From a phage, in sequence record PZ347661.1: a DNA stretch of 64,000 nucleotides; one strand, given 5' to 3'. The translations under genes were made by a program, and so were the position numbers. Shown here piece after piece: positions 1 to 39,597 of this stretch; position 1 is the stretch's first letter, and every line of letters begins with the position of its first letter. The notes below the pieces were generated by a model. That model made no database searches and was not told the DNA's origin. It was given only the letters and a program-made list of their open reading frames with translations.

Positions 1-34
1 GTGAGGGCTTTCTTGTATATATAGGAGAGTAAAA

Positions 35-349
35 ATGACCCAGAAATTACGTGTATGGCACATCCCCCAAGTGCCAATGAAGGCATTTCATGTAGAGACT
101 GATAGTCTTCAGGAAGCTGTTAAGATTAAGAATGCGCTAGCAGACTACGATCTATTCCAATATGAGAACAACGTCAAAGGCGATTATGCTAATGCTAACG
201 GTATTGAGATGTGGGATGAGTCCCTCACTGACCAAGACCTTATTGATATGGAATTGGATGACCGTTGGGTAGATTGGTATATTGAAACTGAAGAATATTT
301 CTTTGATGACCCAGAAGAGTATCTGAATTATCTAGCCAAGCAAGTATGA
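35..349 (+). CDS. hypothetical strongly acidic small protein
   Basis: 104-aa ORF; roughly 24 Asp/Glu against about 8 basic residues; terminator immediately downstream. Confidence 0.45.
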   Translation: MTQKLRVWHIPQVPMKAFHVETDSLQEAVKIKNALADYDLFQYENNVKGDYANANGIEMWDESLTDQDLIDMELDDRWVDWYIETEEYFFDDPEEYLNYLAKQV

Positions 350-395
350 TTGCTTTATTTGGGGCTATAAACCCTGAAATAAAACCCTCAAGTTT

Positions 396-425
396 GACCT
401 CCCTATTGAAGGGAGGTCTTTTTTT
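396..425 (+). terminator. rho-independent terminator
   Basis: GACCTCCC-tattgaa-GGGAGGTC stem-loop followed by a T7 run. Confidence 0.7.
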
Positions 426-450
426 GACTTAAACATCCTGGAGCCAGGAA

Positions 451-639
451 ATGTATAAAGAGATTGCATTTTTCTCATTCTTACTTGGTGGTTTAATAGG
501 TGCAGGAATTGTAGCTATTTCTAATACCTACTTTGGTTCTACTCCAAACTCTCTAACACAAACCCTCAAGCATGAATGTGAATTGAATATCCCTCGTAAT
601 CAAAACTGTGTAATGCAGTTCGTACCGGAGAAAAAATGA
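451..639 (+). CDS. small membrane protein (hypothetical)
   Basis: 62-aa ORF with one hydrophobic helix IAFFSFLLGGLIGAGIVAI. Confidence 0.35.
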   Translation: MYKEIAFFSFLLGGLIGAGIVAISNTYFGSTPNSLTQTLKHECELNIPRNQNCVMQFVPEKK

Positions 640-896
640 ATATTCATAACCTACGTTTGGTTGAAAAACTGTATGAAGAATACAACGACAACCGGCAGCA
701 ATTAGCTAGTTTGAAGAAGTCACCACATATGGTGAAAGTATCATTCAATGATACGGATTTAGGACTACAAGCCCGTACAAGAATACTTCCTGAACTACTG
801 TCCTTTTATCAAAAGAGGATTGCTGTTTTAGAAAAACGCTTTGAGCATTTAGGCGTAGATTTATCACCACTCCCAGATGAAGGAGAAGAAGAGTGA
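636..896 (+). CDS. hypothetical protein
   Basis: 86-aa ORF, start overlaps upstream stop, same-strand operon context. Confidence 0.4.
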   Translation: MNIHNLRLVEKLYEEYNDNRQQLASLKKSPHMVKVSFNDTDLGLQARTRILPELLSFYQKRIAVLEKRFEHLGVDLSPLPDEGEEE

Positions 897-1102
897 AAGT
901 AACAAATCGTTCTGAGAACAATGAGGTAACTTTCGGTGATGTAGAGCCTGCTAATGGTTTTATTTATAACCAGACAGTGTGTCTAAAGATTCACTTACCT
1001 GAAGGTAAACCTGCTGCTGTTGCTGTAGAAACTGGCAAATCATTCTATCTATCAGCAAATACATATGTAACACCAATAAACCTGGAAGGATATTACCTTT
1101 GA
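893..1102 (+). CDS. hypothetical protein
   Basis: 69-aa ORF, 4-nt overlap with upstream gene. Confidence 0.35.
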   Translation: MKVTNRSENNEVTFGDVEPANGFIYNQTVCLKIHLPEGKPAAVAVETGKSFYLSANTYVTPINLEGYYL

Positions 1103-1284
1103 AACTTACCCAGTCCCAAGCAATCTTCCTTCGTATGGTTCAAGGTGGTTCTGCCACCAGCAACCGTAATAACAAAACCGCACAGTCTCTTAAGAAGCTG
1201 GGCTTAGTACAGTTCAATACTGGTCTTGGGTGGTCATTAACCCCTATCGGTGTACTTCAACTTAACGAAATGAAAGGTAACTAA
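1099..1284 (+). CDS. hypothetical protein
   Basis: 61-aa ORF, 4-nt overlap with upstream gene. Confidence 0.35.
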   Translation: MKLTQSQAIFLRMVQGGSATSNRNNKTAQSLKKLGLVQFNTGLGWSLTPIGVLQLNEMKGN

Positions 1285-1614
1285 ATGAAAACTTTACTTA
1301 AAGGTATTGCAGTAGCCGCACTGATAGCTTTGGCCCCAAGTGCACAAGCAATTGAACCAGAACCAATTCTGGAAGGTGCTCAGGCTTATCTGGATGACAC
1401 CCGTGATGCGTTCGGGCAAGGATTCTTCATGGGCAGTATGATCTCTTATATCGAGAGTACAAATAATTGCGTTCCTGAAGGTGTTAAGTATTCAGTCATT
1501 CTGCCTAAGATTGTCAAAGTAGTTATTTATGACTCTGCAATTCTCAAATTGAAGAATACATCTCAAATTGTTGTGTACTCAGTACACAAGGCATATCCCT
1601 GCACTAAATCTTAA
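1285..1614 (+). CDS. secreted/periplasmic small protein (signal peptide)
   Basis: N-terminus MKTLLKGIAVAALIALAPSAQA has n/h/c regions and an AQA-I cleavage-like site; 109 aa. Confidence 0.45.
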   Translation: MKTLLKGIAVAALIALAPSAQAIEPEPILEGAQAYLDDTRDAFGQGFFMGSMISYIESTNNCVPEGVKYSVILPKIVKVVIYDSAILKLKNTSQIVVYSVHKAYPCTKS

Positions 1615-1648
1615 TCAGTAATTCCATTAGCTTTAGGAGAGTAAGTAA

Positions 1649-2701
1649 ATGGCAAGCATTGACTCCTTGACTGTATGTAATTCACGTCAAGCTCGTAACT
1701 TTATTATCCGTGCCCTGAAAGCAGGTAACGTACCATTCCTGACTTCATCACCGGGCATGGGTAAATCTGCAATCATTCGTTCTATTGCAGAAGAATTTGG
1801 TATGAAGCTGATAGACCATCGTCTGTCTACTTCTGCTCCAGAAGACCTTTCTGGCTTACCATTCCGCAATGGTGACCGTGCAGAGTTTATCCCATTCGCT
1901 GACTTATTTCCTATTGAAGGGGATGCTGTACCGAAGGGTTATAATGGCTGGCTCCTGTTCCTCGATGAGTTCAACTCAGCTAAGAAAGAAGTAGTAGCTG
2001 CTGCATACAAACTGATTCTCGACCGTATGACTGGTCAGAAAAAACTACATCCTAATGTGATGATTGTCTGTGCAGGTAACAAAGCTACTGACCGTGCCAT
2101 TGTTAACCCACTGGGTACTGCAATGCAGTCCCGTGTGGTTCACTTCGAAATGGAACTTAACTTCGACATCTTTGTTGAAGACGTAATGATTCCTCAGCAA
2201 TGGGATGAACGTCTGGTTGCATTCTTACATGCTAACCCCGGTTACCTGCATGACTTCGACCCGGCACATAAGAACAAAACATTCTGTTGTCCTCGTACCT
2301 GGGACTTTGTTAACAAAGACCTCAAGAACTTGCCAGAAGGTGCTCTGCCTGATGAAGATTCTATCTACTATGCAGGTCACGTTACTGCTGGTAAGGCTAC
2401 AGAATTTGTTCAGTTTACCCAGGTGTACAATCGTATCATTACGATTGAGAAGGTAGTCAAAGACCCACTGGGCTGTGCACTACCGGATGATAACAACCTG
2501 TGTTGGGCTACTGTTAACCATCTGGCTAACAAAACTACTGAAGAGAACTTTGTTGATGTTCTTCGGTATATTGAACGCTTTAAAACGTTCACCCATAGGA
2601 TTCTATACTTCCGTACAGTAGGCAATGCATTACCAGATCTTCAGGCTACCCCTGAATGGCGTAAGGCTGCTGCTAATATCTCTCGCTACATTCACGGATA
2701 A
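1649..2701 (+). CDS. MoxR-like AAA+ ATPase
   Basis: Walker A SPGMGKSAI, Walker B LLFLDEFN, MoxR/AAA_5-like length of 350 aa. Confidence 0.75.
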   Translation: MASIDSLTVCNSRQARNFIIRALKAGNVPFLTSSPGMGKSAIIRSIAEEFGMKLIDHRLSTSAPEDLSGLPFRNGDRAEFIPFADLFPIEGDAVPKGYNGWLLFLDEFNSAKKEVVAAAYKLILDRMTGQKKLHPNVMIVCAGNKATDRAIVNPLGTAMQSRVVHFEMELNFDIFVEDVMIPQQWDERLVAFLHANPGYLHDFDPAHKNKTFCCPRTWDFVNKDLKNLPEGALPDEDSIYYAGHVTAGKATEFVQFTQVYNRIITIEKVVKDPLGCALPDDNNLCWATVNHLANKTTEENFVDVLRYIERFKTFTHRILYFRTVGNALPDLQATPEWRKAAANISRYIHG

Positions 2702-2708
2702 TCACAAC

Positions 2709-3884
2709 ATGAACCAATTTCCTCAGCACACACTTAGTGATGAACAACTCATGCGTGAGTATGACCGTATTCAGGCCCAAGCCTTCCTGGGCAAGTCTGC
2801 TGCGTTCTTTGGTTCATTACTGTGTAGTCTTAAATTCTCATGGAAACGTGAGGATTGTCCCACTGCATGTACTGATGGGATAGAACTTCATTTCAACCCA
2901 GACTTCTTTATCTGGATGTGTCCAGATGTAAGAGAAACAGTATTAATGCACGAACTATGGCATGTAGCATATCTACATGACATCCGTCGTGGAAGCCGTG
3001 ACCCGGAAGTCTGGAACCAGGCATGTGACCACTTCATTAACCTTCAGTTAGAAGAGGATGGTTACAAGTTCACTGGTATCGACAAGGGCATTTGCAAAGA
3101 CCCTAAATATAAAGATTGGGTCGAAGAAGACATCTACGATGACCTGATGAAGAACCCTCAGAAAAGGCAGAAGCCGTCAGGGGGTGCTGGAGCAGGTCTT
3201 GCTGGCGACATGAAATCCCCTACTTCGGGGCAGTCCCAGGGTGCTGTCGTCAACAACGTAGTACGTGCAATGCAGAGCCAGAAGATGGCTGGTGGACAGA
3301 TGCCCGGTAAGGGTGCTGGTCGTATGGAAGAGGTTATTACCCAATTCCTTAAACCAGTAGTTCCCTGGCAGGAAGTTCTGATAAACTTCTTTACCGACAT
3401 TGATGACACCCATTATACGTGGGCCAGACCTAATCGTCGTTACACTGACATCTATCTACCTTCCATGGAAGATGATGAAGGACGCTTACGACACTTAGCC
3501 TACTTTGAGGATGTATCTGGTTCCATTAGTAGTGATGACTCTCTGCGTTTTAACTCAGAGGTTGCTTACGTTAAGAGCCAATTCAATCCTAAGAAGATGT
3601 CCTTAATTACCTTCGACGATGTTATCCAGGAAGAAATAGACATCACTGAAGAAGATACTTTCGAAGAGATTAAGATTACTGGTCGTGGTGGTACAAACCT
3701 GGAACCAGTACGCGAATGGATTATTAAGAATAAGCCAACCGCTGCAATCATATTCTCCGATATGTATGTTCGCCCAATGGAAGAATTACCATTTGATATC
3801 CCCATCATCTGGTGTGTTCTGAATAATCCCAATGCTACCGTACCTTTTGGGGAGGTAGTTCATATCCCTAAAGGAATGAAATAA
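2709..3884 (+). CDS. VWA-like protein with N-terminal HExxH (putative metallopeptidase-like) domain
   Basis: HELWH motif near N-terminus, Gly-rich linker, C-terminal VWA-like region; directly follows the MoxR ATPase; start moved to ATG 2709 to avoid overlap. Confidence 0.55.
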   Translation: MNQFPQHTLSDEQLMREYDRIQAQAFLGKSAAFFGSLLCSLKFSWKREDCPTACTDGIELHFNPDFFIWMCPDVRETVLMHELWHVAYLHDIRRGSRDPEVWNQACDHFINLQLEEDGYKFTGIDKGICKDPKYKDWVEEDIYDDLMKNPQKRQKPSGGAGAGLAGDMKSPTSGQSQGAVVNNVVRAMQSQKMAGGQMPGKGAGRMEEVITQFLKPVVPWQEVLINFFTDIDDTHYTWARPNRRYTDIYLPSMEDDEGRLRHLAYFEDVSGSISSDDSLRFNSEVAYVKSQFNPKKMSLITFDDVIQEEIDITEEDTFEEIKITGRGGTNLEPVREWIIKNKPTAAIIFSDMYVRPMEELPFDIPIIWCVLNNPNATVPFGEVVHIPKGMK

Positions 3885-4390
3885 TGGTTGTTAACGGTAA
3901 TTCTCTATATCGTTCCTCTCAGTTGCTGGATGTTCCAGACCATAAGGTATCTGAACACGGTGTAAGCTATGGATTAGGTGAAGCTGGTTATGATATTCGT
4001 ATCAAACAAGATATTACCTTCTATCGCTTATTTGGGTTGATTCCAATGGTGAAGGTCGTTGATGGAAATCAAGTATCACGCCATCTCGGTAAGTTCACAT
4101 TGGCTTCAGCAATTGAGAAGTTCAACATGTCCCCATCCTGTGTAGCTATCGTTCACGATAAGTCTACCTGGGCAAGACGTGCATTATCTGTGTTCAATAC
4201 CGTAATAGAACCAGGATGGAAAGGGTATCTTACCCTCGAACTGGTCTATCATGGTCGCAAGAAATTGCATATCCCAGCTGGTTCTGGGATAGCTCAAGTA
4301 TTATTTCATCTGGTTCAGGAACCTGCTAATTACAATGGCAAGTATATGAACCAGGAAAACAAACCAGTAGCTGCAAGAAGCAGCAAATAA
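3884..4390 (+). CDS. dCTP deaminase / dUTPase-superfamily protein
   Basis: Motifs NTVIEPGWKGYLTLEL and IAQVLFHLV...NYNGKYMNQ typical of the Dcd/dUTPase fold. Confidence 0.65.
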   Translation: MVVNGNSLYRSSQLLDVPDHKVSEHGVSYGLGEAGYDIRIKQDITFYRLFGLIPMVKVVDGNQVSRHLGKFTLASAIEKFNMSPSCVAIVHDKSTWARRALSVFNTVIEPGWKGYLTLELVYHGRKKLHIPAGSGIAQVLFHLVQEPANYNGKYMNQENKPVAARSSK

Positions 4391-4399
4391 GGAAACAAC

Positions 4400-4609
4400 A
4401 TGTCAGTATTTCAAGTAACTCATGCAACCTCAGATGTACGTTTAACCATTAATGCTGCAAATGTAATTGCAGTAGAACAGATTCCACAGTCTGACCATGC
4501 ACGCGTCATATTTGTAGATAATAACTATATAGAAACCAAAGAAACCTATCGTTCAGTACGCAATTACCTGAAGAAAGCTCTTGCTCCTGCAAGCAAAGAC
4601 GCTGAGTAA
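4400..4609 (+). CDS. hypothetical protein
   Basis: 69-aa ORF in operon context. Confidence 0.4.
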   Translation: MSVFQVTHATSDVRLTINAANVIAVEQIPQSDHARVIFVDNNYIETKETYRSVRNYLKKALAPASKDAE

Positions 4610-4682
4610 GTAGCTGCCTAAATAGCCCAACATAGTTGGGCTATTTGTGAAGAAACTAACTCAACCTCACATAGGAACCATC

Positions 4683-4925
4683 ATGGAATCTTTAGCAGCA
4701 ATCCTTGTTTTCTTATTCATATTGGCTGTATACCTTATCCCTACTATCATTGCTTTTTCACGAGGCCATGTCTCTAAGTGGGGCATTGGTGTACTCAATA
4801 TCGTATTAGGCTGGTCACTGGTATTCTGGGTAGTAGCACTGATTTGGTCACTGTCCAACAAAGGGCAGAACCAGGTTACAAATGTAACCGTTGTTCAAAC
4901 CAATGGTGGCAGTAAAACAGAGTAA
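4683..4925 (+). CDS. superinfection-immunity (Imm)-like two-TM membrane protein
   Basis: YLIPTIIAFSRGH...LNIVLGWSLVFWVVALIWSL resembles the Imm-family pattern; two TM helices; ATG 4683 chosen (GGA upstream). Confidence 0.5.
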   Translation: MESLAAILVFLFILAVYLIPTIIAFSRGHVSKWGIGVLNIVLGWSLVFWVVALIWSLSNKGQNQVTNVTVVQTNGGSKTE

Positions 4926-4997
4926 CTAATCGTAATAGTCTCATGAGGCTATTACTGGAAGTTACTTCCAGCTCATTGCTTATCCATCTCCTAATCC

Positions 4998-5026
4998 AAG
5001 CCCACCTAACCCGTGGGCTTTTTTAA
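4998..5026 (+). terminator. rho-independent terminator
   Basis: AAGCCCAC-ctaaccc-GTGGGCTT followed by TTTTTTAATT. Confidence 0.7.
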
Positions 5027-5040
5027 TTACAGGTACTCTT

Positions 5041-5421
5041 ATGTCAAACAGACGAAATGGTAAGTCTATCCTGCAAGGACTGGACTTCAGTAAGCTGGAA
5101 CAAACTGCAATGCTTGCTTTAGGTAAAACTATCCATGACCAAGTGGAGAGTAAAATTGAATTAGATCTTTATGCAACAATGCAGACTCTTATTCAGAAAA
5201 AATGGATTACTAGCAGACTTTTTCCTTCATACATTCCCCCAGAACCTCATCTGAAATCTAAGGTAGACCGAATCATAGATAAGTTCTGGCTTAACCCATA
5301 CGGGGATGATATGCAACTTTATCTGACTCAAATACAAAAGAATCCTCATACTAAGGATGTGTTCAAGGGTAAAAGTACTACCCATCACTACCCCTGGTAT
5401 AGAAGAGGTAGTAAATACTAA
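5041..5421 (+). CDS. hypothetical protein
   Basis: 126-aa ORF after terminator. Confidence 0.4.
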   Translation: MSNRRNGKSILQGLDFSKLEQTAMLALGKTIHDQVESKIELDLYATMQTLIQKKWITSRLFPSYIPPEPHLKSKVDRIIDKFWLNPYGDDMQLYLTQIQKNPHTKDVFKGKSTTHHYPWYRRGSKY

Positions 5422-5864
5422 TGCGTATCCCATTCCTAAGAAAAAGGGAACGAAATCCTGTTCTTTATAATAAAGGCATAGAGGATGAGTATGCACTCAA
5501 CAGTAAAGCTCGTTCCTACACAACAAAATTATTTATGGGGACTAAAAACCCTGATAGATTACTGGACTTTGTTTTTGAACAAGTCTTTATCATATACAGC
5601 TTAGCTATGACTGCTGGTTCACAAGAAGTAAGTGATAAGGCAAGAGATGCTCTCTGTATGCTCCGTAAAGAGTATGAAGCCCTCATGTATGAAGACTTGT
5701 ACTCCTTTAAAAAAGAAACCGCTGTAGCGTGTTCTGTGGCTCTTACTGAAGGTGTAGCAGTATTACAAGAACTACCTCGTAGTGAGTTTAAGCTGGTATA
5801 TGTTCAGGTTAAGAGAATCACAGAGACTAGAAGTGGTATCACCAACTATCTAAGGTCATTCTAA
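5421..5864 (+). CDS. hypothetical protein
   Basis: 147-aa ORF, start overlaps upstream stop. Confidence 0.4.
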   Translation: MRIPFLRKRERNPVLYNKGIEDEYALNSKARSYTTKLFMGTKNPDRLLDFVFEQVFIIYSLAMTAGSQEVSDKARDALCMLRKEYEALMYEDLYSFKKETAVACSVALTEGVAVLQELPRSEFKLVYVQVKRITETRSGITNYLRSF

Positions 5865-6808
5865 TGATTAAGGCATCAGTAATTGCAGATTCTGTTCATC
5901 CAGAAACAGGAACTCGTATAACAACCTTTGAATTGGTTTATCCCCGATTCATTCACAGTGAGTTTATGACTCACCGTGTATTCAACCGTAATGCTTCGAG
6001 CAGTCGTGCTATTCCTACCTCTAAGCTTATCGAACAGGTTCGTAATGAACCAGTGATGCCAAGTCACTGGGGCAAGAACCAGAAAGGTATGCAAGCAGAG
6101 GAAGAACTCACTCCTATGGAGATTGGGGATGCCAAGTTTATCTGGGATAACGCTGCATCTGCTGCTGCTGTGTACGCTGAACAACTACGCCGTGGTCAGG
6201 TACATAAGCAGATTGTTAACCGTATTCTGGAACCCTTCACGCATATTCGTGTAGTGGTAACTTCAACTAGCTGGGCTAATTTCTATGGACTGCGTGACCA
6301 CAAAGATGCACAACCAGAGATTCGTGAACTGGCTCAAGCAATGCGTAAGGCACATGAAGAAAGCACACCAAGAGCACTATCATATGGGCAATGGCATATG
6401 CCGTACATTACTCATATTGATCGTGTTGGGGCTTACAATTTCTGCAAACGCAATCGAGTTACACGCGATGAACCAAGTGATGCAGAAGTACATGGACTAC
6501 TTCTTAAAGTAAGTGCTGCACGCTGTGCTCGTGCTTCCTATAACAACTTTGAAGGGCGACCTTCTACTATCGAAGAAGACCTTGGCTTATTTGCTAAGTT
6601 AGTGGAAAACCAACCTATTCATGCTTCTCCAACGGAACATCAAGCTACGCCTATGAACCTTAGTGAGAAGTACGTGAATAACATGAACCCAGTTACATGG
6701 GAACAAGGTGTTACATCCATGGATAAAGAAGGGAATCTGTACTCAGGTAACCTGCTTCACTTTATCCAATTCCGTAAATTAATTCCTGGTGAGACTATTA
6801 CTGAATGA
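5864..6808 (+). CDS. thyX: flavin-dependent thymidylate synthase ThyX
   Basis: ThyX signature region THRVFNRNASSSR (RHR-x7-S-x-R-like); 314 aa. Confidence 0.7.
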   Translation: MIKASVIADSVHPETGTRITTFELVYPRFIHSEFMTHRVFNRNASSSRAIPTSKLIEQVRNEPVMPSHWGKNQKGMQAEEELTPMEIGDAKFIWDNAASAAAVYAEQLRRGQVHKQIVNRILEPFTHIRVVVTSTSWANFYGLRDHKDAQPEIRELAQAMRKAHEESTPRALSYGQWHMPYITHIDRVGAYNFCKRNRVTRDEPSDAEVHGLLLKVSAARCARASYNNFEGRPSTIEEDLGLFAKLVENQPIHASPTEHQATPMNLSEKYVNNMNPVTWEQGVTSMDKEGNLYSGNLLHFIQFRKLIPGETITE

Positions 6809-7044
6809 AAAAACTAGCTCTATACGCAATGCTAATTAGTACCTTACTTACACTAACCTACGCATACAAAGTTGCCTTTGTCGTAGAAACAGATATGCAG
6901 TTCATTCGAGCTAGTATTCTGTTCTTTGTAAGTGAAATTGGTTTATGGTGTGTCTACTACTTTGCTCGTGATTATGAAGCGATTCGTGAGCATGATGAAG
7001 CAAAGGAACGAATGAGACGCTTCATTGAAGAAAATAGTAAGTAA
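6805..7044 (+). CDS. small membrane protein (hypothetical)
   Basis: 79-aa ORF with two hydrophobic helices. Confidence 0.4.
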   Translation: MKKLALYAMLISTLLTLTYAYKVAFVVETDMQFIRASILFFVSEIGLWCVYYFARDYEAIREHDEAKERMRRFIEENSK

Positions 7045-7050
7045 ACTTAA

Positions 7051-7076
7051 GACCTCCTCCGGGAGGTCTTTTTTTT
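7051..7076 (+). terminator. rho-independent terminator
   Basis: GACCTCC-tccg-GGAGGTC followed by a T8 run. Confidence 0.75.
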
Positions 7077-7104
7077 GGTTTCAATAACTGTCCCAGGAGG
7101 ACTT

Positions 7105-7329
7105 ATGGCAAGTTGGTATGCAACTATGTTGGAGAAAGACTCCAATGGAATATACAGAGAATCCGCAGGCAGTTTTAAAAACATCTGTATAGATGGGCGT
7201 TTATGCAAAATTAATGCAATAGACACTGCGGAAGAAATCCTGTCTAAAGAATCAGGGTATGCAGGATTCAAGTTAGAAAAACTTAGTAAAGCCTGGGATT
7301 ACAGAAATCCCATTGTTATTAAAAAATAA
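7105..7329 (+). CDS. hypothetical protein
   Basis: ORF with AGGAGG RBS at 7094-7099 and ATG at 7105. Confidence 0.4.
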   Translation: MASWYATMLEKDSNGIYRESAGSFKNICIDGRLCKINAIDTAEEILSKESGYAGFKLEKLSKAWDYRNPIVIKK

Positions 7330-7338
7330 GGAAACAAT

Positions 7339-7551
7339 ATGCCTGCTAAATATCGTATTAAAGACACTCCCGTAATGTGTGAGGGAGAAAAGGGTGACAT
7401 TGTATATGCCTGTATCCAGGATGATTTCAATGCTGCTCTAATGTTAACCCAAATGACAAATACACTGCATGTATCAGTAACACTGGACCCTACCGGTGAC
7501 TATCCATGCTTCCCTATTCCTGCCCATAACCTGGAGCAAATTCATGATTAA
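7339..7551 (+). CDS. hypothetical protein
   Basis: 70-aa ORF. Confidence 0.35.
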   Translation: MPAKYRIKDTPVMCEGEKGDIVYACIQDDFNAALMLTQMTNTLHVSVTLDPTGDYPCFPIPAHNLEQIHD

Positions 7552-7858
7552 CCCTGAAGTAATTCATAGTAAAACCGGTAAGGCTGTCCCGCTTAGTGAG
7601 ATTGCAGTAACTGGTGATATTGCTGCTTGTCCAGCTAACATCGCTTCTCTATGTATGTGCATTGCTGCATTAGCAGAAGAACGTAAATTATGGCTGGAAC
7701 CAAGCAAGGAGATGGTACTGGCTGGTATGTCTGAACTGAATGCTCTTCTGAAAGAAATGTATGACGAGAATGGGCAATTAGTTGAACCTACTGATGACCA
7801 AATTTCAGACACTGTAGTATTTGTACTACAAGCAATGGCGGAGAAACGAAATGGCTAA
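7544..7858 (+). CDS. hypothetical protein
   Basis: ORF with ATG at 7544 overlapping upstream stop. Confidence 0.35.
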   Translation: MINPEVIHSKTGKAVPLSEIAVTGDIAACPANIASLCMCIAALAEERKLWLEPSKEMVLAGMSELNALLKEMYDENGQLVEPTDDQISDTVVFVLQAMAEKRNG

Positions 7859-8045
7859 CGCTACAGTAAAAAACAAAAAACAATTCTCCATCACTATTGA
7901 TGGTTTATCTGAAGAAGATTTACTAATTCTGGCTAGTTTTATGCAAAACAGTCCTTTTGGTTACAGTCCTCATGAGGAACCGGAAAAAGAACGGGAATTA
8001 CGTAAAGTAATCTTTGAAGCCTGTAAATCGGCATTAGATTCTTAA
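7851..8045 (+). CDS. hypothetical protein
   Basis: ATG at 7851 overlapping upstream stop; 64 aa. Confidence 0.3.
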   Translation: MANATVKNKKQFSITIDGLSEEDLLILASFMQNSPFGYSPHEEPEKERELRKVIFEACKSALDS

Positions 8046-8088
8046 TAGTCATAACCAAGAAGCAACATTTAATCTGGAGAGTAAATAA

Positions 8089-10653
8089 ATGTTAGTTGCA
8101 GATACTAATGAAGTAGCTACCTCAGCGACACTGGGTGGCAAAGAAACAATTGCCTTTGGCATCTCTGATGACCCGGCATTCTTCCATGTATTAAGTACTT
8201 CTCTGTATAACAATCCTACTCTGGCAGTAGTCCGTGAGACTATCTGTAACAGTTGGGATGCTCATATTGAAGCAGGTAAGACTAATACTCCTATTCGTAT
8301 CACCATTGATACAGACAACTTTATTACCTTCCGTGACTACGGTAACGGTATCCCAGATGAACTCATTGGTTCCATTTATGGTGTCTATGGTGCATCTACT
8401 AAGAAAGCCAACAGTAGTGTTACTGGTGGCTTTGGTCTGGGATGTAAATCCCCATTCGCTTATACGGATAGCTTCCAGGTTACTTCATGGAACCAGGGAA
8501 AGATGTCGGTATACAACGTAGCTAAGGCTGCGATTGAGAATGATGGTAAGCCAGGTATTGTTCCTATTGTTACTGGTATTCCTACTGAGGAATCTGGTCT
8601 GGAAGTTAAATTCCAGTTAGGCAAACATGATTTAAATACCTTTATTCATTACATCAAATCAATCGTGTTTAACGGTGAGATTAAAGCTGAGCTAAGTACC
8701 ACTAAACTCGTTAAAACAGAAGAGGGCATTAGTATTCAGCAAGGTGACTACACTCTACTGAATACATTGGGTATGTCATTTGAACCCGGTTCGTATGATA
8801 TGTCTGATAGCTGGTATCAGGGTTATATGGGTAACAGTAACATTTTCGTTCGTTACGGCAACGTAATGTACCCAATTGTATCCAGTCCTGCTAGTGAAGA
8901 AGCTGTAGGTCTTATTCTCAACTTTATGAATATCATTGGTGCTTCTAATTTAGTAGTTCAAGCTGCACCAGATACTCTGGCTATTGCTCCTAGTCGAGAA
9001 ACTCTGTCTAACCAGAAGTTAACCGACGATGGTATTACTACTCTATGTGTAGATTTAGTAGACCGTATGGAGAAAGAGATTAAGGCTAAAATTCCTGAAG
9101 CTATTAAGCAGGTTGAAGAATTCGCCTCTAAATCCTCTACTCGCTTTTGGGAATATCCTTCTTTCCTGTCTGCTGTTACAAACCCAATTGTTCAACGTTA
9201 TATGTCTTCTAGTTTGTGGGCTAAGCAACGTAAGCATCACATCAAGCACTGGCGTAACCTATCCAATAAAGCATTACTAGCTCGTCCTGAATATGCAGGT
9301 CTTAAGAAGCTGTATGGTAAAGCTATACGTGCTCTTAAGCATACGCGTACAGACAGCACCTATTTATTCCAGGATTTAGTATACCGTCACCTACACTTAC
9401 CCCAACTTGCTGCTCTAAAGGCTACTGGTATTAAGTGGTCTGGTTACATAGTGAACCAGGGTAGCTGTGTTGACTTAGTAAAAGGTAAGCTTACTGATTA
9501 CTTTAAGATGACTCATCTTAGTCATTTAGGTATCGGCATATTCACTACCAAGAACGTTGTAGTTACCCGACGTTTATCTGATTGTGCAGACTCTTTCTCA
9601 TACTTCCCTGAGTACAACCGAGGTGACTTGGAGCGTACAGCTTTTGTTCATGTCGTTGGTCCTAAGAAGGGTGCAGCAGAGGAAGCTGTAGCTAAGTTTA
9701 CTGTTATGGGTTATCGGGTAATTGACCTTACTCAATATAATGAGTGGGACAAACCAACTAACTTCCGTAGAGAACAAGCTAAGATGGCTGCTGAAAAACG
9801 GGCTAAGACAATAGCTGCCAATAAAACCAAAGCAGGAGGTAAAACCAATGCTCTGATTTCATTGAATGCAGTTCTTGATACTACCCGGGTACGGAATAAA
9901 AATGGTGATTGGGAACCCAAGCCCTATATCCAGAAGGAATTTGCTGACCCAAGTCGCCATGAGAAGTACGGTTTCGTTGAAGTGGAGCAACCTAAGTACT
10001 ACGTACTAGCCAATCAGGTTGGTTCAGGTAGCCCAGTAACAGCCAGTATTGGAACCATGTGGAAATGGTATGAGTTGTCCGATGAGATGAAAGCAGAGAC
10101 TGTTGTCTGCCGTAATCAAATCGAAGCTAACAAGGCCAAGCGACGTGGTGCTATCCACATTGATGATGTTCGCTTTATGGAACTGATGCCCGTAATTACT
10201 AGTAAAGGCTTCAAGAAGTATGTTACTGAACATCGCATCGGTATTCTGGAATACGTAGGACTGGATGACAGGGAATACTGGGAAATTCTAGACATACTGG
10301 GTCTAACCTTCAAACCATTACAGAATCTGATTTTTAAACCAGAGTATGAGTGGGCATATGACTTTCTACGGAATCGACCACATGACAACAAAGAAAAACT
10401 TGTTGAAATGGGTTGTATTAAGTCAGTGAGTGACTTAGAACCATATACAAAACTGGTTAATCCCCGTAATCATAAGTACTTTAAAATACTTAATGATTAC
10501 AAAGAATTATTCAGTTATAGCTGGGCTAAAAATGACATCCTACAGACGCTGGACTTAGGTAGTTTGGTCAAACACCTTAAGAAGAATCCAGAGGATATTC
10601 CTGGGTTTAAGTCCCTCTACCGTAATCGTCTAAATAAACTGAAAGGTAACTAA
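8089..10653 (+). CDS. rIIA: rIIA-like protein (GHKL-type ATPase N-domain)
   Basis: N-terminal Bergerat-fold motifs ETICNSWDA, RDYGNGIP and GGFGLGCKSPF; 854 aa; followed by rIIB-sized partner. Confidence 0.6.
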   Translation: MLVADTNEVATSATLGGKETIAFGISDDPAFFHVLSTSLYNNPTLAVVRETICNSWDAHIEAGKTNTPIRITIDTDNFITFRDYGNGIPDELIGSIYGVYGASTKKANSSVTGGFGLGCKSPFAYTDSFQVTSWNQGKMSVYNVAKAAIENDGKPGIVPIVTGIPTEESGLEVKFQLGKHDLNTFIHYIKSIVFNGEIKAELSTTKLVKTEEGISIQQGDYTLLNTLGMSFEPGSYDMSDSWYQGYMGNSNIFVRYGNVMYPIVSSPASEEAVGLILNFMNIIGASNLVVQAAPDTLAIAPSRETLSNQKLTDDGITTLCVDLVDRMEKEIKAKIPEAIKQVEEFASKSSTRFWEYPSFLSAVTNPIVQRYMSSSLWAKQRKHHIKHWRNLSNKALLARPEYAGLKKLYGKAIRALKHTRTDSTYLFQDLVYRHLHLPQLAALKATGIKWSGYIVNQGSCVDLVKGKLTDYFKMTHLSHLGIGIFTTKNVVVTRRLSDCADSFSYFPEYNRGDLERTAFVHVVGPKKGAAEEAVAKFTVMGYRVIDLTQYNEWDKPTNFRREQAKMAAEKRAKTIAANKTKAGGKTNALISLNAVLDTTRVRNKNGDWEPKPYIQKEFADPSRHEKYGFVEVEQPKYYVLANQVGSGSPVTASIGTMWKWYELSDEMKAETVVCRNQIEANKAKRRGAIHIDDVRFMELMPVITSKGFKKYVTEHRIGILEYVGLDDREYWEILDILGLTFKPLQNLIFKPEYEWAYDFLRNRPHDNKEKLVEMGCIKSVSDLEPYTKLVNPRNHKYFKILNDYKELFSYSWAKNDILQTLDLGSLVKHLKKNPEDIPGFKSLYRNRLNKLKGN

Positions 10654-10657
10654 TCTG

Positions 10658-12694
10658 ATGAAAATCGAACTGATTTCTATCATCGCACTGGCAGTTGACA
10701 GTCGTAACCTTACACTGTGGAAGCCCGATGGCTCCACGCTTATATATCCTCAGAGCGATCCACGGGTTGCTCGTATTGTATCTGAAGCACAAACCAAAGG
10801 TCTGGGAACTACCAAAGACCAAATAGAAGTGAATATTGCACCAGAAGTAAACCTGCGTACTGAATATCTGGAAGCAGAGAAGAACACTAATGGATTCGTC
10901 CGTTTCTTCAAGGTAGCTAAAGCTAAACTTATGGAGTTCTTTCAGGATGGTACAGGTGTTCCTCCTGCACGTATCGTCTCAGATATTAAGCTGGGTAACC
11001 CTACTAAGACGTTGGTATCTAAAGCCATGGATACCTTCCTGGCTGTACAAGCTAATGAACCAGAAGTAACTGTAACAGATGGTTTCTACGACAGACGAGA
11101 CAACCTGATGTGGGTTACTGGCTGGGATAAGGACCATAACCATCCTGCACTGGTTCGTTTTATCAATGACGTACTGCGTTGTGGTTATGACCATACCAAC
11201 CGTACTCTTGCACAGGAATGGCCTATTGCAATTCGTGCAGTATCCGATGATGAAATGGGTGAGTTTGCTAAACAAGCTCAGCACATCAAAGGAGTACACA
11301 TTGTATTTACCAGTCGTGATGTAACGCCATTTCCTTACGTAGAAGTAGTTAAAACTACGAACCAGGATAAGCTGGCTGCCGCTTCTGAGAAGCTGGCTGC
11401 ATTGGGGGCTATTAGTACTGATGATGCTAACTTCCACACTGATGTGAAGGAAGATGAAGTGGTTGTTGCTGTTACCAACAATGGGGTTATCCCTGGAGTT
11501 GAGAACCTGCATCGTCACTTGCGTCAATCTGCTCAGCTGAAAGACTACAAGGGCTTTACTAAGTTCCTTGAGCGTCTGGCTCCGGTTATTAAAGACCGTC
11601 TGCACTCAGTAGAAGACCTGATGAAGTTCATGGAGACTGCTGAACTGCCTATTGCCGATGATGGTTCAATCCTGTTCCTCAAACGCCTTAAGTCTAGTGG
11701 TATAGAAAACGGTAAACGTGTATTCGTTGACTGTCACTCAGGTAACATTCGTCAATGGGTAGGCTGTAAAGTGCAGGTACGTGAAGACCTGGTAGACCCT
11801 GACCGTCGTCAGGATTGTTCTAACGGTCTGCACGTAGCATCCATGAGCTATCTACGTGGCTTCGGTGGTAACGTAACTATCCTTGGTAAAGTAGCACCGG
11901 AAGATGTATTTGCTGTTCCTGAGTACAGCACTAATAAGATGCGTGTATCTGCATATCATATTATTGCTGAGCTACCCGAAGAGGAACGTAATAACGTTAA
12001 CAACGGTATCTATCTTTCTAAAACTGAAGTAGGTAAAAAGCTACTTAATGATGCCATCGTTGGGAACCATAGTTCACCTACCACACTTATTATGGTTGGT
12101 GGTCATTATGGTACTAACCTCAAATACACCAATCTATCTTCTGGTTCCGTAGAACAATTCCGTACAGTTGCTAGTAAAGAAGCACTGAATATGGAAGAGT
12201 CACTGAATGAAGCTGTAGCTGCTGAACCAGTGAAAGCTACTGACCTTAAACCTATTAGTAAGAAGGCTCCTACTGTGAAAGAACAAATCCAGGAACTGGT
12301 TAAAGAGTTCCTTAATGCAACAACCCCTGAAGATAAGTTAGCTGCTGCTGACCTTCTGGTAGAACTGCGTGGTAAAGCTCGTAAGCCCTGGGGTGCATTC
12401 GACGTAGGTAGTGATGTAGTAGACGCTATTGCTACTATCCGTAGTACTCGCATTCCTGCACCAAAAGCTAAACCGGTGAAGGTAAGCAAACCTATTAAAA
12501 CTGCCCCTAAACCAATTAATGGAACACACGCTGATAATCTGCGTAGCATCCTGAACGATACGACGTACTCCGACTATCAGAAAGGCCATGCTCTGCAAGA
12601 CTATAAGCGTCATGCTAAGAAGTCATTCACTGCAATGGGTTTGACTGAAGAAGAAGCTAAATTAGCTACCAAACTGGTCAAAGCTGTTAAGTAA
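10658..12694 (+). CDS. rIIB: rIIB-like protein (putative)
   Basis: 678-aa ORF immediately downstream of the rIIA-like gene; assignment by synteny only. Confidence 0.45.
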   Translation: MKIELISIIALAVDSRNLTLWKPDGSTLIYPQSDPRVARIVSEAQTKGLGTTKDQIEVNIAPEVNLRTEYLEAEKNTNGFVRFFKVAKAKLMEFFQDGTGVPPARIVSDIKLGNPTKTLVSKAMDTFLAVQANEPEVTVTDGFYDRRDNLMWVTGWDKDHNHPALVRFINDVLRCGYDHTNRTLAQEWPIAIRAVSDDEMGEFAKQAQHIKGVHIVFTSRDVTPFPYVEVVKTTNQDKLAAASEKLAALGAISTDDANFHTDVKEDEVVVAVTNNGVIPGVENLHRHLRQSAQLKDYKGFTKFLERLAPVIKDRLHSVEDLMKFMETAELPIADDGSILFLKRLKSSGIENGKRVFVDCHSGNIRQWVGCKVQVREDLVDPDRRQDCSNGLHVASMSYLRGFGGNVTILGKVAPEDVFAVPEYSTNKMRVSAYHIIAELPEEERNNVNNGIYLSKTEVGKKLLNDAIVGNHSSPTTLIMVGGHYGTNLKYTNLSSGSVEQFRTVASKEALNMEESLNEAVAAEPVKATDLKPISKKAPTVKEQIQELVKEFLNATTPEDKLAAADLLVELRGKARKPWGAFDVGSDVVDAIATIRSTRIPAPKAKPVKVSKPIKTAPKPINGTHADNLRSILNDTTYSDYQKGHALQDYKRHAKKSFTAMGLTEEEAKLATKLVKAVK

Positions 12695-12706: not shown

Positions 12707-12740
12707 ATAGCCTCACTTATAATAAAGTGAGGCTATCTTT
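12707..12740 (+). terminator. stem-loop terminator candidate
   Basis: 12-bp stem ATAGCCTCACTT / AAGTGAGGCTAT with 6-nt loop, then CTTT. Confidence 0.5.
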
Positions 12741-25021: not shown

Positions 25022-25845
25022 TCTGGTAGGTGGCTCAGAAGCTGCTGCTATTTGTGGTAGTGTTCATAATTCTGATGCTATTGCTTATCAGGATTCTGGA
25101 CGTGTCGGCTCCATACATAGCATTTATCATCACTGTGCTTATACTTTGGAAACTCAGTGATAAAAACGGTGGTGACAAGCCGCCAGACTAACAACAACCG
25201 AACCAGTGTGCAGGAATACTCTCCCCTGTGCATTGGTTCAACTGAGACTAATATGAACAAATTTACTATTCACTGGCTCAATGGAAAGGTTAGTTCTTTC
25301 ATGGGTGGAGAACCTGTTGAAGGAAAGAAAGCATTTCACATTGAATCAGAAGGCTGCAAAATCTTAATACCATACGCTTGGTATAAAGATGGTGAAGTAG
25401 AAGCATTAAAAAAGAGTAGTTAATATCGTGAAGGGTTCTGTTAGAATCCTTTGAGATAGGAACTCCTATCATAACCTTTCTTAACTTAATCTTTGCCGTA
25501 TGGCACTGACGCTAGGGGTGGCCCCCCATCCGTCAGGTAGACTATTTTAAGAATGGGTTATCACAGCAAATGTAAAGCAACATTCGGGTTAATCAATGGC
25601 CTCTCCCTATAGGGGCCATTTCTGAATCTTAGGCTATATCCCAAAGGTTAATATCTTTGGGATAAGGCTTCAGATCCCTTATCAACTAACCGCTCAATGT
25701 TGAGCATTTTAATCACATAAGCCCCTATATGGGCTGGGTTAAATGTCGGATAGCATAGCTACCTACAGCATCGAATTGTTAGGTCTTACATGCAAACTAA
25801 ATCATAGGGTAAAGAGGGACTCGTCCTCCCTCCCCTATTATAATG

Positions 25846-25915
25846 GTCGGGGTAGCGCGTAGGCATGTGCAGAAGGTCGCTACTTCTCTCGCTGGTTCGA
25901 ATCCAGCCCCCGACC
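25846..25915 (+). tRNA. tRNA-like gene, 70 nt, isotype uncertain
   Basis: Acceptor GTCGGGG/CCCCGAC 7 bp; T-arm GCTGG-TTCGAAT-CCAGC; D-stem GCGC/GTGC; anticodon stem AGAAG/CTTCT with loop GTCGCTA (possible CGC); short variable loop. Confidence 0.4.
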
Positions 25916-26466
25916 TACTGACATCCTATCAATGAGTACATTAGGCTAACGTGCGGAGGTTTACACTGTAGCCGGTGTAGGTGGAGAAGACGGCAGGATA
26001 GCTACCTGTGCTTAGTGTACTCTTTGATAGTTTTCGTAAGCGATTATGCGGTTTTTTAGAAACGAACCAATAACATAAATGCAAACGATGATGTTGTTCT
26101 GATGGCGGCGTAATAGCCTATAAGTCAGCAAGGTCTTCCGATTCCTTGTAAACAAATTCGGCGCAGTGGCCCGCTGTGATTAATAATGGGCACACAACAG
26201 GTAAGAGCATTTAGGCTACTGAGAAATCATCCGAGGCAATCAGACCTATCTTCTGTTAAGTGCTCTTTCCGTTGTGGTGAATGTGCAGGCTGATGCGCAG
26301 TGGGACGTGGCTGACTCACGAGGATGGCTCAAGCGAATAAGCAAGCTCGACGCCGCCGAATAAGCGCCTTATGCCGGAGATCAGTACCGGCCACCACAAC
26401 AAGTCCAGACGATATCTGAGTGACTATAAAAACAGATGGAGCCAGGTGGAATCCCTGGCAACTAAT

Positions 26467-26532
26467 TCCGGTGTAGGTACTAGTGTCGTGCACGGCATGA
26501 GTGTTCTGGTTCGAGTCCAGACGCCGGAACCA
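26467..26532 (+). ncRNA. tRNA-like minihelix element with encoded CCA
   Basis: TCCGGTG pairs with CGCCGGA; T-arm TCTGG-TTCGAGT-CCAGA; discriminator A then CCA; body only about 63 nt, too short for a full cloverleaf. Confidence 0.3.
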
Positions 26533-26534
26533 AT

Positions 26535-26658
26535 TACCAGTTGCACGAGATGGCTTGATATGTTCAAGTTTGGACTAAGTGTGACACCGCTAGATTGGAG
26601 AGCTGCTGCGGTAAGCTATAGACTCCAACCGGGGGTTCGAATCCCTCACTGGTAACCA
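26535..26658 (+). ncRNA. tRNA-like element with oversized body and encoded CCA
   Basis: TACCAGT pairs perfectly with ACTGGTA; T-arm GGGGG-TTCGAAT-CCCTC; discriminator A then CCA; about 121 nt between acceptor strands with internal hairpins. Confidence 0.3.
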
Positions 26659-27102
26659 ATTCAAAGTAGCATTGCACTAATCCATCCCGGAGTTCAAAGG
26701 CCAAACATGGAGCAGTGCTACTTTGAATTAGAAAGATTATGGGGGTAAGTCGTAACCATACGACGGCGTAAGTACCAGATGAGACTTCTGGACGCCCCTA
26801 CCAGATTTGGGGTGTAACAGTTAGATCCAGTTGCCGGAAGTGCTATTCTAGATACGCTGCCAATGTGTGAACGGTAAGGCTGTACAGGACTCGGACTCCC
26901 ACCTCAAACCAAAGTCGCCAGGTACTTATGGCAAACGGGTAGTAACGAACTAGTCATTCGTCAAACGCCCAACCTATTATGAGTCAGCAAGAACGCCTTC
27001 ACTTAAACTTAAACAAAAAAGCTTAACGCAATAATTATGTAGGGGTATGTAAGGATTGCGAAGAAGGAGCCAGTTAAAGTCTGGCATGGCTCAACCTATT
27101 AT

Positions 27103-27176
27103 GCCCACTTAGCTTAGACAGGGAAAGCAACCGACTAATAATCGGAAGGTCACTGGTTCAAATCCAGTAGTGGGTA
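27103..27176 (+). tRNA. tRNA gene, canonical cloverleaf, anticodon loop CTAATAA
   Basis: Acceptor GCCCACT/AGTGGGT; T8 A9; D-stem GCTT/AAGC with 9-nt loop containing GGG; anticodon stem CCGA/TCGG; 5-nt variable loop; T-arm ACTGG-TTCAAAT-CCAGT; 74 nt. Confidence 0.55.
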
Positions 27177-27491
27177 CTTATTTGCTGCAATATTCCCATA
27201 GGGAATGGTGCCGTATACGCCACCTAGTTTCTGGTGAAACTCCAGATGCAGCAATCCATTCAGCAGTAACATAGTCCTGATTGCATTGCACTCTAAAGAC
27301 AACACTGGTAAGACAGTCCAGTGACTGCTAATGTACTGTTATTCCCCTCGACGGGAATTTCGCTAGTGAAGGTAACACTTAAAAATCCAAACCTACGTCT
27401 TACTACTATCGGGCTATCAACCCACAGTCGCTTAACACACTAGTGGTAGTAGTTTGACGGCCTAGCCTCGTTAGCTGCGTTAAAGCTACTA

Positions 27492-39531: not shown

Positions 39532-39597
39532 AGCATGATTCCTGTTCAAACTTATATCGTATAAGAAGATTCACTGTACAGTAAGTGAATGTAAGAG

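Follow-up and report, generated by a model that had tools for sequence, protein, structure and literature searches.

Does the perfect palindrome CTGGAAG-TTA-CTTCCAG, which lies between a superinfection-immunity gene (imm) and a gp28-like gene, 26 nt upstream of an intrinsic terminator, act as a hairpin in its own right? The palindrome was found in a window (the whole stretch of phage DNA that was analyzed, 64,000 nt, record PZ347661.1) in which a sequence-only reading had likened its geometry to that of the DNA hairpin promoters used by N4-type virion RNA polymerase (vRNAP), with a processing site or regulatory element as the fallback. The alignments and predicted folds described below suggest that the small hairpin most likely represents a single strand of a larger, conserved RNA stem-loop around the imm stop codon. 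The fallback agrees with this conserved structure of the sense-strand RNA, in which the functional unit would be the larger, long-range stem-loop rather than the 17-nt hairpin.

Fifty-nine phage records matched window positions 4000-6500 at 80-95% identity, nearly all of them G7C/Bp4/ECBP1-type N4-like coliphages. By its sequence, the window phage is a G7C/Bp4-type N4-like coliphage with its closest relatives in Gamaleyavirus (Schitoviridae). These relatives, together with a minus-strand ORF of 3611 aa (28714-39549) that is the size of a vRNAP, agree with the N4 type to which the earlier reading had pointed. In the 72.9-kb G7C genome, the counterpart of position 4955 lies at about 13.65 kb, among the middle genes and downstream of gp15 and gp16, the RNAPII genes. 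The local genes and elements are listed in Table 1. Over window positions 1-12000, sigma-70-like promoter matches were depleted (11 compared to 27.0 +/- 4.4 in shuffles) and terminator-like sites were somewhat enriched (15 compared to 8.7 +/- 3.2). About 2 kb at 25400-27350 is largely non-coding, highly structured sequence and contains tRNA-Ala(cgc) at 25845-25916 and tRNA-Ile(aat) at 27103-27177, of which the Rfam gathering threshold gave tRNA-Ile(aat) only.

Table 1. Genes and sequence elements at the imm/gp28-like locus, in window coordinates
Feature	Position	Strand	Description
dCTP deaminase gene	3884-4390		first in local gene order
gp27-like gene	4400-4609		next after dCTP deaminase
Upstream paralogous cassette	4606-4662	+	gp27 stop codon, hairpin A1 (4621-4645), decayed copy of hairpin B (TTTGTGAAGAAACTAAC)
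imm ORF (superinfection immunity)	4683-4925		Pfam PF14373, E=2e-16; stop codon TAA at 4923-4925
Basal tier, 5' strand	4908-4913	+	GGCAGT, within last imm codons; predicted in individual folds
Lower stem, 5' strand (IR-L)	4920-4927	+	GAGTAACT, holds imm stop codon; predicted by RNAalifold consensus and MFE folds
Intergenic region under study			115 nt, between imm and gp28-like
Hairpin A (upper stem)	4932-4955	+	10 bp, loop CAUG, one U-G pair; predicted
Hairpin B (palindrome)	4955-4971	+	CTGGAAG (4955-4961), tta (4962-4964), CTTCCAG (4965-4971); local, alternative fold, read from sequence
Lower stem, 3' strand (IR-R)	4960-4967	+	AGTTACTT; predicted by RNAalifold and MFE folds, with pair counts and forced folds
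Basal tier, 3' strand	4975-4980	+	ATTGCT, inside motif CATTGCTTA; predicted in individual folds
CU-rich spacer	4981-4997	+	TATCCATCTCCTAATCC; unpaired in all folds
Intrinsic terminator	4998-5026	+	AAGCCCAC-ctaaccc-GTGGGCTT, then T-run
AT-rich TTTTTTAATTA and translation initiation region of next gene	5019-5040	+	TTTTTTA(A/T)TTA kept through to N4
gp28-like ORF	5041-5421		followed by gp29-like and ThyX

Direct reading of 4955-4971 confirmed the perfect 7-bp stem and 3-nt loop just upstream of the terminator. Perfect hairpins of this geometry occur 13 times in the window, compared to 4.8 +/- 2.3 in first-order Markov simulations, and most of the 13 fall within ORFs. The geometry is therefore weak evidence, and a single instance could be due to chance. 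The palindrome was considered non-random because it is conserved among relatives. The intergenic region was aligned across 24 phages, namely 20 Gamaleyavirus or close relatives, Moo19, Jgk1, KP8, and N4; sampling of IMG/VR via gp29 yielded close relatives already in the set and nothing further. TGGAAG-TTN-CTTCCA was found in about 21 of the 24 phages, and TGGAAG-N3-4-CTTCCA occurs once in the 64-kb window. Conservation, proposed earlier as a check, thus held for a 6-bp core (TGGAAG/CTTCCA) and did not extend to the seventh, outer pair, present in 7 of 22 scorable sequences (six C-G, one G-U). The stem is not GC-rich (three of six, or four of seven, pairs are G-C), and the N4 version is degenerate (TGGAAAttcctTTCTCCA). 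The local hairpin is 88.4% paired, and its covariation is no higher than shuffling gives, with 350 of 500 shuffles attaining the same level. The third base of the "loop" is A, G, or C depending on the relative and changes together with a base located 41 nt upstream, so that a loop position is improbable for it in the dominant fold.

That fold is predicted to be a long, interrupted helix of three tiers. In the lower stem, AGUUACUU (4960-4967) pairs over 8 bp with GAGUAACU (4920-4927). The imm stop codon, TAA, lies within this partner strand, and the "loop" TTA is its complement. The 3' strand of the lower stem consists of the inner three bases of the 5' arm of hairpin B, the loop, and the inner two bases of the 3' arm. 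Hairpin A stacks above the lower stem across a 4x4 internal loop. Below the lower stem, the UGC core of CATTGCTTA has a predicted partner in each of the 24 phages, a GCAG-type segment formed by the final codons of the upstream ORF (GGCAGU with AUUGCU in the window); the pairing probability is about 0.7-1.0 overall and 0.88 or more in 23 of the phages. CATTGCTTA is kept in 24 of 24 sequences, from four named genera and unclassified relatives, with G to A in G7C as the sole change; pairing in this predicted basal tier explains its invariance. The support for the basal tier comes from single-sequence folds, and its absence from the RNAalifold consensus is attributed to the heterogeneous upstream alignment. 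One-mismatch matches to CATTGCTTA were enriched in the window (39 compared to 20.3) but scattered within genes on both strands, and could not be read as a motif family. The whole helix is predicted to span about 24-27 bp and 75-80 nt and to end 17 nt before the terminator.

Several kinds of evidence favor the long helix. RNAalifold, applied to the 24 phages, predicted the lower stem, hairpin A, and the terminator and omitted the local hairpin. When upstream context was included, the MFE structures of five phages (the window phage, G7C, phiG17, N4, and Jgk1) all took the form of the long helix; their z-scores lay between -4.85 and -7.34, and none of 200 shuffles folded as well. Across the alignment, 96.4% of the cells are paired, with compensatory changes at two pairs, compared to at most 62.5% paired in slid registers of the same helix. 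Its covariation was 0.178 compared to 0.141 in shuffles, a level reached by 5 of 500 shuffles, although this shuffle control is not a probability and the lower-stem covariation comes from a few sequences (Jgk1, N4, and G-U/A-U alternations). For example, alignment columns 46 and 92 read U-A in 15 sequences, U-G in five, and G-C in two. The long helix is retained through different bases in N4 (AAGG.GUU with AAU.CCUU) and in another register in KP8 (GAGUAA with UUACUC). Hairpin A is hypervariable in sequence, with at least five unrelated types among the 24 phages, and its stem forms in all of them; RNAalifold counted 1 to 10 double changes per pair at seven of the eight consensus stem pairs.

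When each fold was forced in turn, the long helix came out ahead in 23 of the 24 phages, with margins of 1.1-13.5 kcal/mol, and Moo19 was about even. The smallest margin, 1.1 kcal/mol, was that of the window, which is explained by the extra C-G pair in its local hairpin; the corresponding probabilities are about 0.89 for the long helix and 0.11 for the local hairpin. The sense strand folded better than the antisense strand (window, -24.4 and -20.5 kcal/mol; N4, -30.0 and -21.6; G7C, -25.8 and -20.8), by 4-8 kcal/mol through G·U pairs in three of the four phages tested. Several versions of hairpin A have T-G pairs that are workable on the plus strand alone, and in ZQ2 and ST4 a U-G pair is replaced by U-A. 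This predicted asymmetry is consistent with an element that works at the level of RNA. The composite element of the window is only moderately stable and lies outside the windows at or below -19 kcal/mol in a 60-nt fold scan, and the genome-wide scan was too noisy for defining an element class.

The conservation of the surrounding block was compared to that of its neighbors. From the palindrome to the next start codon (4956-5040), the sequence is 97.9% identical among seven Gamaleyaviruses, compared to 62% for gp27, 86% for imm, and 78% for gp28 in the same phages. The block persists without imm in phiG17, Moonfish, KP8, and N4, and without gp28 in G7C, phiG17, and Moonfish. The terminator stem (4998-5020) has eight pairs, five of them G-C, with a 7-nt loop and a T6 run after it; it is invariant in the 24 phages and is annotated as a terminator in SP5M and PhAPEC5. 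The exact 19-nt terminator core, GCCCACCTAACCCGTGGGC, is also present in unrelated viral contigs (L007, L010, L011, L013, L014), where the flanks are entirely different.

As to function, the palindrome may be part of a conserved sense-strand RNA structure within a middle-gene operon that serves as an mRNA 3'-end processing or stability element of the RNase III type. We give this reading an even chance of being correct. The middle genes of N4 are transcribed by a T7-family polymerase (PMC4496689). The form of an RNase III substrate is present in the predicted structure, which has 8 bp and 10 bp around the 4x4 loop and a basal tier of 6-9 bp. Such an element would determine how stable the upstream imm/gp27 message is and would separate that message from the terminator-proximal piece. 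No transcript-end, cleavage, or transcriptome data for G7C- or N4-type coliphages were found in the literature, and we infer both the cleavage or stabilization of the RNA and the translation-switched fold considered below.

Another possible explanation is that the block has no dedicated function. It would be a linker, conserved where mosaic segments meet and homogenized by recombination, and the palindrome and its upstream complement would be remnants of terminator cassettes duplicated upon the insertion of imm. Because the palindrome is nearly self-complementary, any complement of it will resemble it, and IR-L could therefore be a decayed duplicate rather than a selected partner. In several relatives, homology breaks off precisely where the palindrome begins on its 5' side. 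Within 4606-4925, the imm gene is located between two related stem-loop cassettes and is missing in phiG17, Moonfish, KP8, and N4, so that the superinfection-immunity gene looks, from this arrangement, like an inserted cassette. The first cassette has a decayed B-like copy after its hairpin, and Moo19 still reads TTGTGGAAGTTCCTTCAA at that position. A hairpin family, ATAGYC...GRCTAT, recurs at 4622-4644, 4935-4952, and 12707-12736 (three compared to 0.32 expected), always on the plus strand, intergenic, and right after stop codons; in phiG17, Moonfish, and Jgk1, a hairpin of this type takes the place of hairpin A. Recombination alone does not explain why the long helix is maintained through different bases in N4, KP8, and Jgk1, why hairpin A turns over in sequence and yet always folds, or why the G-U asymmetry consistently favors the sense strand, all of which suggest selection on RNA pairing. 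We consider the linker unlikely, although it is the strongest of the competing explanations.

The local hairpin may also matter. TGG (4956-4958) and CCA (4968-4970) are invariant and are paired in the local hairpin alone. Since the 5' strand of the long helix covers the last codons and the stop codon of imm, translation termination at 4923-4925 should open the lower tiers and release the 3' strand, which could then refold as the local hairpin of 6-7 bp; this would explain the conservation of TGG and CCA. The RNA could thus be bistable and sense translation: ribosomes would melt the stop-codon helix and leave the TGGAAG/CUUCCA hairpin, while the untranslated message would form the long helix and be cut by an RNase III-type activity. 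Although this version is distinctly improbable in our judgment, it would make the stability of the superinfection-immunity/gp27 message depend on the translation of that message and would possibly release a small RNA made up of the CU-rich spacer and the terminator.

A small RNA of about 50-75 nt could also be the main product of the locus. It would be released by processing from the 3' UTR, would consist of the local hairpin, the CU-rich single strand, and the terminator, and would base-pair through the spacer. The unit at 4956-5035 is self-contained, independent of both flanking genes, and 97.9% conserved, it ends in the terminator with a U6 tail, and its spacer, which is unpaired in every fold, contains an anti-Shine-Dalgarno-like CUCCU (4982-4997, ATCCATCTCCTAATCC). 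Intergenic small RNA candidates are present in LUZ7 (PMC9163698). Against this, the spacer, about 98% identical within Gamaleyavirus, has diverged in N4, KP8, and Moo19, where its distal part (4982-4997) is not conserved, and the proximal part is accounted for by pairing. Rfam returned only sub-threshold, chance-level hits for 4400-5300 (best 19.6 bits compared to a cutoff of 49), tRNA alone passed the gathering threshold in the whole window, and the E. coli genomes had no homologue of 4916-5040. We therefore regard a small RNA as quite improbable. A small peptide encoded in the spacer was rejected; there is no ATG, the TTG-started frame of 16 codons is without a ribosome-binding site, and the substitutions are non-synonymous.

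In KP8 (a Klebsiella phage; contig L018, about 1215-1285), the palindrome region contains GGUUACUCCAA, which is perfectly complementary over 11 nt to UUGGAGUAACU; the latter is found at the ribosome-binding site of the gene that follows the terminator. From the sequence, this complementarity could be due to chance or to sequestration of the Shine-Dalgarno sequence. In the window, TTTTTTAATTA comes directly after the terminator (5019-5029; about 2126-2136 in N4, contig L021) and overlaps its T-run. N4 RNAPII promoters are AT-rich from -7 to +2 (PMC4496689), and by sequence the TTTTTTAATTA region is a possible candidate for an N4-type AT-rich middle promoter. As a recurring promoter, TTTTTTAATTA had two matches in the window compared to 2.15 expected. 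A putative upstream motif of N4 middle promoters, AAGACCTG, occurred 69 times in the window compared to 60.7 expected and was dropped since it was not enriched.

The palindrome itself could be a middle promoter for the phage RNAPII of the type described in LUZ7, an N4-like Pseudomonas phage with four middle promoters that have a stem of at least 6 bp and a loop of 3-4 nt about 15 bp upstream of a G start (PMC9163698). The candidate shares with them the N4-like phage background, the middle-gene region, and the geometry (a stem of 6-7 bp and a 3-nt loop), and G4978, in CATTGCTTA, is the only G in 4972-4997 and is located 15 nt from the loop center. However, the candidate is present as a single copy in 64 kb, while a promoter class should recur, its stem is not GC-rich, and the hairpin decays in N4. 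G4978 is an A in G7C, and a transcript started at about 4978 would meet a strong terminator 20 nt on. The LUZ7 architecture also differs from that of N4, in which transcripts start on T (PMC9163698), and G7C-type phages have N4-like gp1 and gp2, the N4 type of promoter being AT-rich from -7 to +2 as described above (PMC4496689). A LUZ7-type promoter is thus very unlikely to be the explanation.

The vRNAP promoter reading, in which a DNA hairpin extruded on the template strand would be recognized as an early promoter by the injected virion RNA polymerase, was rejected as almost certainly wrong on the basis of its explicit determinants, the real early promoters of G7C, and genome position. The template strand of a vRNAP promoter reads 5'-C(+1)-AAAA-GAAGC-GGA-GCTTC-3'; the polymerase specifically recognizes A or G at -11, G at -10, G at -8, and C at +1, and a sheared -10G:-12A pair together with a loop-closing C(-9):G(-13) pair gives the GCGRAGC core (PMC4496689, a review; PMC13492108, a 2026 cryo-EM paper). 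The candidate resembles the N4 early promoters P1-P3 in phage family, in its short stem, and in its 3-nt loop (PMC4496689; PMC13492108); the geometry fits a stem of 5-7 bp with a 3-nt loop (7/3 in the window and 6/3 in most relatives). It had been noted earlier that the loop is without a central purine. This is true of the plus-strand template, which has T at the loop center (-11), while the minus-strand template, used for rightward transcription, has the loop TAA with A at its center. The match goes little further, as the minus-strand template agrees at -11 (A) and -12 (A) only and the plus-strand template at -12 alone. The -10 position is T on both strands and -8 is A where G is required in each case, -12 is A, the closing pair is G(-9):C(-13), and the template base at +1, 11 nt from the loop center, is G (rightward) or T (leftward) instead of C. 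The GCGRAGC core of P1-P3 is thus missing. In addition, the loop base is variable, the hairpin is degenerate in N4 itself, and the G-U pairs indicate RNA rather than extruded DNA.

Position argues against a vRNAP promoter as well. Promoters of this type are constrained to the first-injected left genome end (PMC4496689), and the site, at about 13.65 kb of G7C and downstream of the RNAPII genes, is outside the early region. G7C has four canonical GCGGAGC template-strand cores with flanking stems, at 92-98, 506-512, 1231-1237, and 5224-5230, which implies that this phage group retains the N4 promoter specificity. They are intergenic, just upstream of gp1, gp1.1, gp2, and gp15, all within the first 5.3 kb and none close to 13.6 kb, and read NNNGC-TCC-GCNNN-(T/G)T(A/G)T-G on the coding strand. 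The core at 5224-5230 is directly upstream of the RNAPII subunit gene gp15, and the four cores carry no annotation in the G7C record. In the window, GCGAAGC cores were found at the level of chance (5 compared to 5.15 expected), none with flanking complementarity. Dismissing the site keeps a look-alike from being annotated as a virion-polymerase promoter, and the 13 hairpins of this geometry in the window illustrate how poorly stem and loop geometry by itself predicts function in N4-like genomes.

The positive finding is a modest one: the locus is a non-coding cassette that is far better conserved than the neighboring genes, from N4 to the G7C-type phages, Moo19, and KP8, and that holds a predicted structured RNA around a stop codon. 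The finding would be routine if the element is merely a 3' stabilizer or a recombination linker. Post-transcriptional control in N4-like phages is essentially unstudied, and the element provides a defined, mutable target for studying the expression of the imm moron and the possible processing, as in T7, of middle transcripts made by the T7-like RNAPII. The element is an undescribed example of a familiar type, an intergenic mRNA stem-loop within a terminator cassette, and there is no literature on the element itself.

One close likeness is to the RNase III sites of T7 (R0.3, R1.1, and others), which have two stems of about 8-10 bp, an internal loop, and more than 20 bp of interrupted double-stranded RNA, and are intergenic, just after a stop codon, in polycistronic transcripts. 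The element shares with these sites the intergenic location, polycistronic transcripts made by a T7-family polymerase, and, as predicted here, two stems with an internal loop. It differs in engulfing the stop codon and last codons and in having a terminator immediately after it, and there is no sequence similarity. In the lambda sib/int system, the formation of an RNA hairpin decides the processing and degradation of the upstream message, and the RNase III hairpin of sib overlaps the terminator and depends on read-through. The two systems share an RNA hairpin that follows a gene and adjoins a terminator. In the element, the long hairpin does not overlap the terminator, and to propose that it depends on translation or read-through is speculation. 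Lastly, promoter/stem-loop cassettes (PeSLs) reportedly flank variable genes in T4-type phages (Arbiol, Comeau and Krisch, 2010). Like the cassette described here, PeSLs are conserved stem-loop cassettes that bound genes that are present or absent and are plausibly substrates for recombination. They belong to another phage family with a different polymerase, and the cassette at this locus is composed of a stem-loop and a terminator, with promoter content that is putative.
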